DNA of 64,000 nucleotides from the NCBI RefSeq assembly GCF_056746865.1, contig NZ_CM163382.1, one strand, 5' to 3'. A program made the translations under genes and the position numbers. Shown here one piece after another: positions 17,795 through 55,366 of the stretch (its first letter is position 1; each line of letters opens with the position of its first letter). The notes beneath the pieces are model-generated. The model did no database searches and was not told the DNA's origin. It saw only the letters and a list, made by a program, of their open reading frames with translations.

Positions 17795-18178
17795 CTATTG
17801 ATTTACGGTTGAGTAAGGACGCAGTCGTTTTTGATCGCGTTTAGCCAGACCATCAACCACCAGATTCCACGAATCGTTGATCAGATCGCGAAGTAACGCT
17901 TCGGAGATTTCCTCGCCGGGATACACCGAAATCCAGTGCTTTTTATTCATGTGATACCCTGGCTTGATGCTTGGGTATATTTGCTGATTTAGCAGGGATT
18001 TTTGTGGATCGGACTTCAGATTGATAAAGGGGACGCCGCGCAGCTCCGACGACAGCATAAAAATCTTGCCGCCAATTTTAAAAACATCGAACTCCGGGCC
18101 AAAAGGCCAGCAAAGCTCGACAAAGGGTAACTCAAGGGCCAGGCGTTTCGTCGTTTCGTGCGGTGATTGCTTATCCAT
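17795..18178 (-). CDS. ybdF: YbdF (DUF419-family protein)
   Basis: Translation from the internal Met ([44 protein letters not shown]...) matches YbdF; the longer upstream ORF extension overlaps ybdJ and is discounted. Confidence 0.85.
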
Positions 18179-53942: not shown

Positions 53943-54371
53943 TTAACGCACAACCAGCACCGGCAGATTGGCGTGGCGGATCACGCTCGAGGCGTTAGAA
54001 CCTAACAGATGGGTCGAAATCGATGGGTTGCGAGAACCGATAACTACAACATCAGCCCCCAGTTCTTCTGCCAACTCATTGACTTCATCCCGCACGCTAC
54101 CAAAACGGACATGTTGCTTAATGCGGGAAGGATCGATGGTGAAGTGGCTGACCATCGTTTGCAGACGTTCTTCTGCTTCATGTTGCAGATGCTCTTCAAA
54201 ACGACGCACATCAGCGGCAAAACGGTGCAGGCTCAGGCTGGCTGACCCGGGTAGTACGTGAAGTAGATGAATAACTCCGTCATCCTGGGCGAGGAATTCA
54301 GCGTGGCGAACAGCTTTGTCGCTCAATTCCATTTCGAAAACATCCACTGGCATGATGATTGTCTTGTACAT
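53943..54371 (-). CDS. uspG: Universal stress protein UspG (YbdQ)
   Basis: Translation [81 protein letters not shown]... ; start at the internal Met. Confidence 0.93.
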
Positions 54372-54494
54372 AAGCATTCTCTCCTTGTTTTTGCATGTAT
54401 ACATAACAGCACATTATTGGTTATGAATCTATGATTTGCGAGGCTGATTTGATCTGAATTTGCTATTGAGCTGGAAAATAAATAAAACCAGGCG

Positions 54495-54584
54495 CTACCA
54501 GCGTTGTTCAAGGTATAGCACTGCAGCAACAATAATCGCGGCTATGAATATATAAAATGCAGTGATACCGAGAGCTTCGCTCAT
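54495..54584 (-). CDS. Candidate small hydrophobic protein (29 aa), not in the supplied ORF track
   Basis: ATG-initiated minus-strand ORF MSEALGITAFYIFIAAIIVAAVLYLEQRW: one predicted transmembrane helix and a charged C-terminal tail; weak Shine-Dalgarno sequence; sits in the uspG-rnk intergenic region. Confidence 0.25.
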   Translation of the reverse strand: MSEALGITAFYIFIAAIIVAAVLYLEQRW

Positions 54585-54726
54585 ATGAGGTTCCGCAGAT
54601 GAATAACCAGTTCAGATTAGAATGCTGCGCTTAAGAGCAAAATGATAAATCTGGTTGATATTTGAGCGAAAAGAGGATGCGAGTGCATCCTCTGGGCAAA
54701 GCGAGTTATCGCTTGTGCAGATGGGA

Positions 54727-55137
54727 TTAAAGCAGGTAGTCGCCAGCAGCTTCTGGCTGGTATTCGAGTTCCAGCACTTCAAGGTGGGTTGCAACGCCGC
54801 CCGGAAGTTCCCAGTGAATGGAATCGCCAACGCGCAGCCCCAGCAGTGCGGCACCTACCGGAGCCATAACGGAAAGCTGAGTATTGCTGTCGGTCATTTT
54901 TGCCGGATACACCAGCGTGCGCACACGCACTTCGCCATCGCTAAGATTGCGGAATTTAACCCGGCTGTTCATTGTCACCACGTCGTGTGGCATCTCTTCT
55001 GGCGAACACATTTGGGCGCGATCCAACTCTGCGTTTAACGCGTCGGCGATTGGCAAACCAGCATAGGCGGGTTGCTCCAGCAGAATATCGATGCGTTCGG
55101 CATCCAGGTCGTTAATGATGATAGTTGGTCTGGACAT
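54727..55137 (-). CDS. rnk: Regulator of nucleoside diphosphate kinase Rnk (GreA/GreB-like)
   Basis: 136-aa [83 protein letters not shown]... Confidence 0.95.
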
Positions 55138-55366
55138 TTTTACTCCATGTCGTCGGTACTGCGAGTGTCGCAGATAAACATACCCAAAAGAAAACCCTCA
55201 CCGTCAGGCGGCGAGGGTTTAACTCACATGATGATACTGACTGTTGCTCACTCTTTGAAGTGATTTGCGTCACATTCAGGGAATTCCTCAATGTAGCGCA
55301 TTATGTATAAATCTTAATCGTCATGGTTTATGGAAGACGAATTAGCGTGTTTTGTAAATCAGAGGA

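Follow-up and report, generated by a model that had tools for sequence, protein, structure and literature searches.

A ybdR-less form of the rnk-uspG interval of Escherichia coli, a common natural variant with its own allele of the small membrane protein gene yldA

We analyzed the spacer between uspG and rnk in a 64,000-nucleotide stretch of DNA (NCBI RefSeq assembly GCF_056746865.1, contig NZ_CM163382.1; the window, hereafter) and found that it very probably represents the ybdR-less form of an old and common two-state polymorphism of the rnk-uspG interval, and that the 29-codon open reading frame (ORF) in it is the known gene yldA. The window has the gene order ahpF (plus strand), uspG (minus strand), spacer, rnk (minus strand), rna and citT. 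The initial annotation had placed uspG and rnk 355 bp apart, and its coordinates for the spacer (54372-54726) are exact. It had also placed a zinc-dependent dehydrogenase gene, ybdR, between the two genes in K-12, and the K-12 order is indeed uspG (minus), ybdR (plus; 1,239 bp, zinc-dependent alcohol dehydrogenase), yldA (minus) and rnk (minus). The features of the region are as follows, in window coordinates:

53943-54371, minus strand: uspG, universal stress protein UspG, 142 aa (ORF, RefSeq annotation of the identical sequence of strain 118UI, tblastn)
54372-54494, minus strand: yldA-uspG spacer, 123 nt, holding the window-type uspG upstream region
54380-54386, minus strand: uspG Shine-Dalgarno sequence AAGGAGA, its GGAGA core kept in all species aligned
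54390-54665, no strand: haplotype-specific block, 276 bp (blastn boundaries, SNP positions)
54495-54584, minus strand: yldA, small membrane protein YldA, 29 aa, window-type allele, WP_001287361.1
54591-54594, minus strand: weak Shine-Dalgarno-like GGAA, 6 nt upstream of the yldA ATG
54641-54663, minus strand: conserved 23-nt element AAATATCAACCAGATTTATCATT, between the rnk terminator and yldA
54672-54693, minus strand: rnk intrinsic-terminator hairpin, 9-bp stem AGAGGAUGC/GCAUCCUCU, then UUUCGCU
54727-55137, minus strand: rnk, nucleoside diphosphate kinase regulator, 136 aa

For uspG, we used the annotated start at 54371, which is preceded by the conserved AAGGAGA and is common to all species; the mechanically called ORF (53943-54404, minus strand, 153 aa) is 11 codons longer and starts at an ATG at 54404. 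Just upstream of rnk, a full-length match to the Rfam family rnk_leader (RF01771) covers 55183-55291 on the minus strand (124.9 bits, gathering score 50), and a terminator-like hairpin (55220-55192, minus strand) lies inside this match.

Coding status and identity of the 29-codon ORF

The ORF at 54495-54584 on the minus strand starts with ATG and encodes MSEALGITAFYIFIAAIIVAAVLYLEQRW, exactly as the initial annotation had claimed. Around 10 ORFs of at least 20 aa overlap the 355-bp spacer, and the mere presence of an ORF is therefore not significant; the evidence lies in its conservation. Using Rnk as the anchor, we fetched 80 species-representative loci and found a YldA-like ORF in 35 of them, which with the K-12 locus and the window copy gave 37 yldA copies. 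All 37 have 29 codons and an ATG start, are read from the same strand as rnk and follow it at a distance of about 140 bp. The yldA frame is open in every copy, while the remaining five frames are open in 0 to 22 of the 37. Column entropies at the three codon positions were 0.68, 0.50 and 1.22, and the mean pN/pS was 0.39. Against Escherichia albertii, all six substitutions in yldA are at third positions and silent, as are at third positions all four against Escherichia sp. MOD1-EC7003; the divergence from E. albertii is 6.7% in yldA and 15-17% in the flanking spacers. Six residues (M1, E3, A21, V22, L25 and E26) are invariant in the YldA family, and the window allele has all of them. A purine-rich GGGG or GGAA is found at the Shine-Dalgarno position of yldA in the orthologues, too. 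Judged by these substitution patterns, yldA is under purifying selection.

An ORF this short, with many chance ORFs of similar size overlapping the same spacer and with only a weak Shine-Dalgarno sequence (GGAA), could in principle be a chance ORF or a noncoding regulatory element of uspG or rnk instead of a protein gene. The retention of length, start codon and frame in all 37 orthologues, the concentration of substitutions at third positions and the low pN/pS argue against this, as does the translation of the K-12 orthologue. Neither did the spacer behave as a structured RNA: an Rfam search at permissive thresholds returned chance-level matches only (the best being the snoRNA snoZ223 with 23 bits and E=0.16), and folding found no significant RNA structure. 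We consider the noncoding reading hardly credible and conclude that yldA is a conserved 29-codon coding gene that many Enterobacteriaceae carry, both with and without ybdR. The fetched stretch includes uspG in 77 of the species representatives; of these, 21 have yldA without ybdR, 12 have both genes, 10 have ybdR without yldA and 34 have neither.

The gene is already named. Strain 118UI matches the window at 100% identity here, and its RefSeq record gives this very ORF the name yldA and the product "small membrane protein YldA"; RefSeq also annotates yldA at this place in every window-type genome inspected. The closest known system is YldA of E. coli K-12 (b4734 region), which is represented by the NCBIfam model NF041476 and the Pfam model PF23689. 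The window protein matches the equivalog NF041476 over residues 1-29 of 29 with 59 bits (E=3.2e-16), above the cut-off of 45, and all 34 distinct YldA orthologue proteins match the same model. With PF23689 (YldA-like), the window protein scores 22.9 bits, and 27 are needed to reach the gathering score. The same model gives 73.6 bits for the K-12 allele and 30.9 for an Enterobacter-type allele, and it appears to be tuned to K-12-type sequence. Hydropathy places the best 19-residue stretch of the window protein at residues 5-23 (mean Kyte-Doolittle 2.67; GRAVY 1.39) and points to a single transmembrane helix. The one hydrophobic stretch and the YldA family match bear out the earlier impression of a single-pass small membrane protein.

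The K-12 gene encodes MAEAFYILIGFLIMAAIIVMAVLYLENHS and lies on the strand opposite to ybdR, 3 bp past the ybdR stop codon. Its product has been detected with a chromosomal SPA tag and immunoblotting in LB cultures (VanOrsdel 2018; PMC6001520, Table 1). A literature search for the window-allele sequence found no paper, and the published work found concerns the K-12 allele only. The two proteins are alike in having 29 aa, an ATG start, the same position and strand relative to rnk (about 140 bp downstream) and one hydrophobic helix, and they share M1, E3, A21, V22, L25, E26 and the motif AVLYLE. They differ, however, in that only 15 of the 29 residues (52%) and 50 of the 90 nucleotides are identical, and in that the neighbor of yldA is the same-strand uspG in the window and the convergent ybdR, 3 bp away, in K-12. 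As the named and annotated gene is also found beside ybdR in K-12, the ORF was not exposed by the loss of ybdR. The initial annotation had allowed that ybdR might normally be absent at this position, or that the ORF might be neither conserved nor translated; neither turned out to be the case.

One of the 5,426 complete E. coli genomes, HS-02 (NZ_CP172818.1; L085, 2461-2738), has a decayed window-type block in which an 80-bp deletion takes the yldA stop codon and the spacer towards uspG. The block also contains several insertions of 1-5 bp, and yldA is not annotated there. This state may reflect either real decay or an assembly error.

Structure, distribution and age of the two interval types

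The absence of ybdR relative to K-12, which had been proposed from gene spacing, was confirmed: the gene is missing from the spacer, and a tblastn search of the spacer and the whole 64-kb window found no ybdR fragments, the best match (E=0.015) falling in an unrelated gene near 18003. The alignment to K-12 that had been suggested for delimiting an indel did not produce a simple one. The flanks align by blastn, with 97.5% identity towards uspG and 99.4% towards rnk. Between them, the 276 bp of window 54390-54665 are swapped for 1,611 bp of K-12 sequence, holding ybdR and the K-12 yldA allele, and the two do not align even with a blastn word size of 7. The right edge of the variable block is sharp and falls immediately past the conserved rnk terminator hairpin, while the left edge is a cluster of 14 differences at 54336-54389, reaching codons 1-12 of uspG. 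Beyond the ribosome-binding site, the uspG upstream region differs throughout between the window and K-12. The difference from K-12 is a block replacement and no clean deletion.

A recent, simple deletion of ybdR in the lineage of this strain, with the spacer otherwise K-12-like, would account for ybdR being present in K-12 and missing here, and a clean ybdR-sized difference does occur among Citrobacter haplotypes (C. sedlakii L023 versus Citrobacter HRGM L019). For the window, though, no single pair of breakpoints can be drawn, as the leftover 276 bp cannot be aligned with K-12; the limited identity of the two yldA alleles and the different type of the uspG upstream region are equally at odds with such an event. 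The ybdR-less haplotype is, moreover, present in 1,816 genomes with an internal diversity of up to 2.7% and extends to E. albertii and Escherichia sp. We rejected the simple deletion, already contradicted by the K-12 alignment, as very improbable.

Counted over the 5,426 complete E. coli genomes, the window arrangement occurs in 1,816 and the K-12 arrangement in 3,600, in all cases on the chromosome. The two states are nearly exhaustive in E. coli, and the ybdR-less form, found in about one-third of the genomes, is a common natural variant. Searches for ybdR elsewhere in window-type genomes did not find the gene. With haplotype and phylogroup linked through recognizable strain names only, window-type strains include the B2 isolates ABU 83972 and ZH193, and K-12-type strains include K-12, ETEC H10407, O145 and O157:H7. 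The YldA protein accession is constant within each type among genomes differing by 1.6-2.7% of their DNA. The locus resembles other presence/absence polymorphisms of E. coli accessory genes in that ybdR is carried by about two-thirds of the genomes and missing from about one-third at a fixed site between core genes. It differs in that neither state is an empty site: the two are homologous blocks that have diverged deeply, and each brings its own allele of the small core gene yldA and its own uspG promoter region.

The uspG gene itself shows a separate pattern. Across the gene, K-12 and the window differ at eight sites overall. In the 3' third of uspG (53966-54096), the ybdR-less strains SFAD3, 20Y000092 and SWHEFF_58 differ from the window by 15-19 SNPs per 130 bp (~12-15%), including the changes E102K and G105D. 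These differences make uspG a recombination mosaic, with alleles unlinked to the ybdR/yldA haplotype.

Outside E. coli, the window-type block, recognized by its yldA allele, the 23-nt element and the uspG upstream region, is found in E. albertii, in Escherichia sp. MOD1-EC7003 and in a record labelled E. coli SCPM-O-B-8794 and, at greater distance, in Citrobacter sp. R56, NCU1 and Awk4 and in C. amalonaticus S646. Its divergences between lineages track those of uspG and rnk. Over the uspG-proximal 40 nt of the yldA-uspG spacer, identity to the window is 97-100% for E. albertii and other Escherichia and 82% for the Citrobacter R56 group, while K-12 cannot be aligned there. The K-12-type sequence upstream of uspG and yldA, for its part, aligns with Salmonella, C. 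sedlakii, Citrobacter HRGM_0066, C. amalonaticus AUH and Enterobacter. Between K-12 and Salmonella, DNA identity is 79.4-79.7% for ybdR, 79.3% for uspG and 82% for rnk, and the GC content of ybdR equals that of its flanks; on account of this match with the flanking genes, ybdR looks native and not recently imported. With E. albertii and another Escherichia carrying the window type, the split between the two types looks old, as do both blocks.

Two records of C. amalonaticus differ in type, S646 having a window-like yldA (L014, 4644-4889) and AUH_CA_2023_1 a K-12-like yldA (L018, 4406-4721). In both, one of the two spacers (rnk-yldA or yldA-uspG) is enlarged by an additional insertion of 120-170 bp, and the length of the interval thus varies in other genera, too.

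In the reading that we prefer, the ybdR-less block would have arisen by an ancient loss of ybdR from a Salmonella-like ancestral arrangement, and the two blocks would since have coexisted and been moved between lineages by homologous recombination in the conserved flanks. The direction of the change could also be the opposite, with the ybdR-less form as the ancestral state in Escherichia and the K-12 block acquired by some E. coli through homologous replacement with DNA of another enterobacterium. E. albertii, MOD1-EC7003 and the SCPM-O-B-8794 record are of the window type with an identical or near-identical YldA, so that all three non-coli Escherichia sampled are without ybdR, and the B2 strains ABU 83972 and ZH193 are window-type as well. 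The first 45 nt of K-12 uspG are 96% identical to Salmonella and Citrobacter and 89% identical to the window, and the SNP cluster at 54336-54389 resembles a recombination edge. On the other hand, none of the sampled species comes closer to K-12 in ybdR than in the flanking genes, and ybdR has the GC content of its flanks, giving no sign of a recent foreign origin; K-12 yldA has at most 69% DNA identity to any sampled orthologue, so that no donor of an import emerges from the sample. K-12-type genomes, including O157:H7, also show up to 1.6% diversity across the block, and any import would itself be old. We regard an import as possible but doubtful.

A bolder reading would make the interval an ancient multispecies polymorphism kept by selection, coupling the YldA alleles (52% identical), the uspG promoter regions and the presence or absence of ybdR. 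YldA would then be a truncated paralogue of the small membrane protein YoaI, its two alleles giving a sensor kinase or the UspG stress pathway a different tuning in lineages rich in extraintestinal pathogenic E. coli (ExPEC) and in K-12-like lineages. We think this rather unlikely.

Transcriptional context of yldA

The rnk terminator hairpin has a fold energy of -24.2 kcal/mol (z=-6.1), and its stem is invariant in 17 species; the terminator scan passed over it because of its short T tail. Between yldA and uspG, scan and folding found no terminator. Folding of the yldA-uspG spacer gave nothing stable (z=+1.7), and the 5' region of yldA was likewise no better than shuffled controls. Given the lack of a terminator or significant structure between them, yldA and uspG, which are 123 nt apart on the same strand, may be cotranscribed in the window haplotype. 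A scan of the spacer for the sigma-70 consensus found no site for yldA or uspG, the sole promoter-like site (55259-55231) being upstream of rnk, and for this reason the transcription units are guesses. The hand-picked -10-like hexamers TCTAAT and TATCAT were dropped, as neither has a credible -35.

The 23-nt element AAATATCAACCAGATTTATCATT is near-invariant in Escherichia, Citrobacter R56, NCU1 and C. amalonaticus S646, and K-12-type haplotypes lack it. The rest of the spacer is far less conserved, and the element may be a promoter or operator of yldA. In K-12, ybdR and yldA have been listed as a convergent excludon, that is, convergent genes with overlapping transcripts (PMC12288877), and the uspG promoter region is probably shared divergently with ybdR.

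Such a context could suit a type I toxin-like hydrophobic peptide or a leader peptide that controls uspG by its translation. YldA is small and hydrophobic, as are Ibs, Ldr and TisB, and in the window its gene lies directly upstream of uspG with no terminator between. Type I toxins, however, have a patchy distribution and are multicopy, and yldA is single-copy with a position fixed across genera. An Rfam search of the spacer found no antisense RNA family. The overlap of the K-12 yldA transcript with that of the convergent ybdR (PMC12288877) would fit a toxin, yet the tagged K-12 protein accumulates in ordinary rich-medium cultures (PMC6001520). A leader role could not be general, as ybdR splits yldA from uspG in 12 species and uspG occurs without yldA in 44. 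The conserved residues of YldA, furthermore, match those of YoaI. We find it quite improbable that yldA encodes a toxin or leader peptide in place of a YoaI-like modulator.

Relationship of YldA to YoaI and its implications

A whole-word literature search for YldA found the name in tables only and no published function. YoaI is a 34-aa inner-membrane protein that is regulated by PhoB and binds and activates EnvZ; its Glu31 is located in the cytoplasmic tail, and the substitutions E31A and E31Q abolish both the binding and the activation of EnvZ (PMC11429745). We took YoaI from the K-12 record and gathered 22 YoaI-family representatives for a profile. The comparison of the YldA and YoaI profiles by hhalign gave a probability of 96.7%, E=3.8e-10 and 37% identity over 27 columns. 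Of the 18,950 NCBIfam families, the YoaI model NF041475 is the second-best for all 34 YldA proteins (best E=1.2e-8), and the relation is reciprocal, the YldA model being the second-best family for YoaI (E=0.035). Similarity between transmembrane peptides can be inflated by composition. A shuffle control speaks against this in the case of YldA and YoaI: the YldA HMM scores 18.9 bits on YoaI, and the maximum among 5,000 composition-matched shuffles was 12.6. YldA thus appears to be a distant relative of YoaI, which is a modest new point drawn from profile comparisons.

Both proteins have one helix, preceded by an acidic residue and followed by a Glu-Arg/Gln tail. The invariant E3, V22 and E26 of YldA line up with the invariant E8, V27 and E31 of YoaI, while the position of the invariant Ser26 of YoaI is the invariant Ala21 in YldA. 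The N-terminal MNDQM of YoaI is absent from YldA, and the loci differ, yeaK-yeaL for YoaI and rnk-uspG for YldA. We did not accept YldA as a member of the YoaI family itself: the window protein scores 30 bits (E=4e-7) against NF041475, under the cut-off of 45 bits, which as reported is reached by none of the 34 YldA proteins, and YldA has five N-terminal residues fewer, Ala in place of Ser26 and another locus. In K-12, yoaI (L084, 3736-3840) directly adjoins the 3' end of yeaK and yldA (L001, 2835-2924) is 3 bp from ybdR, both neighbors being convergent.

The alignment of Glu26 with Glu31 of YoaI suggests, by analogy, a similar role for YldA. YldA would cross the inner membrane once, as a helix whose N terminus is outside and whose C terminus is inside. 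Like YoaI, it would bind and tune a larger membrane protein, for which a sensor histidine kinase is the most plausible candidate, making contact through the helix and the invariant juxtamembrane Glu26. We put forward only tentatively that YldA is anchored in the membrane and uses Glu26 to modulate a sensor kinase or another membrane protein.

Much of the above is ordinary or already known: yldA is a named and annotated gene whose product has been detected in K-12, and the ybdR difference is common. The additions are incremental and consist of the block replacement in place of a deletion, the two deeply diverged YldA alleles of E. coli and the homology of YldA to YoaI. As the other allele has half of the same residues and a different transcriptional context, results on K-12 YldA are not safely transferable to about one-third of E. 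coli, including B2 uropathogens. For YldA, the profile link to YoaI offers a concrete hypothesis that would be cheap to pursue, namely, that it may bind a sensor kinase via Glu26.
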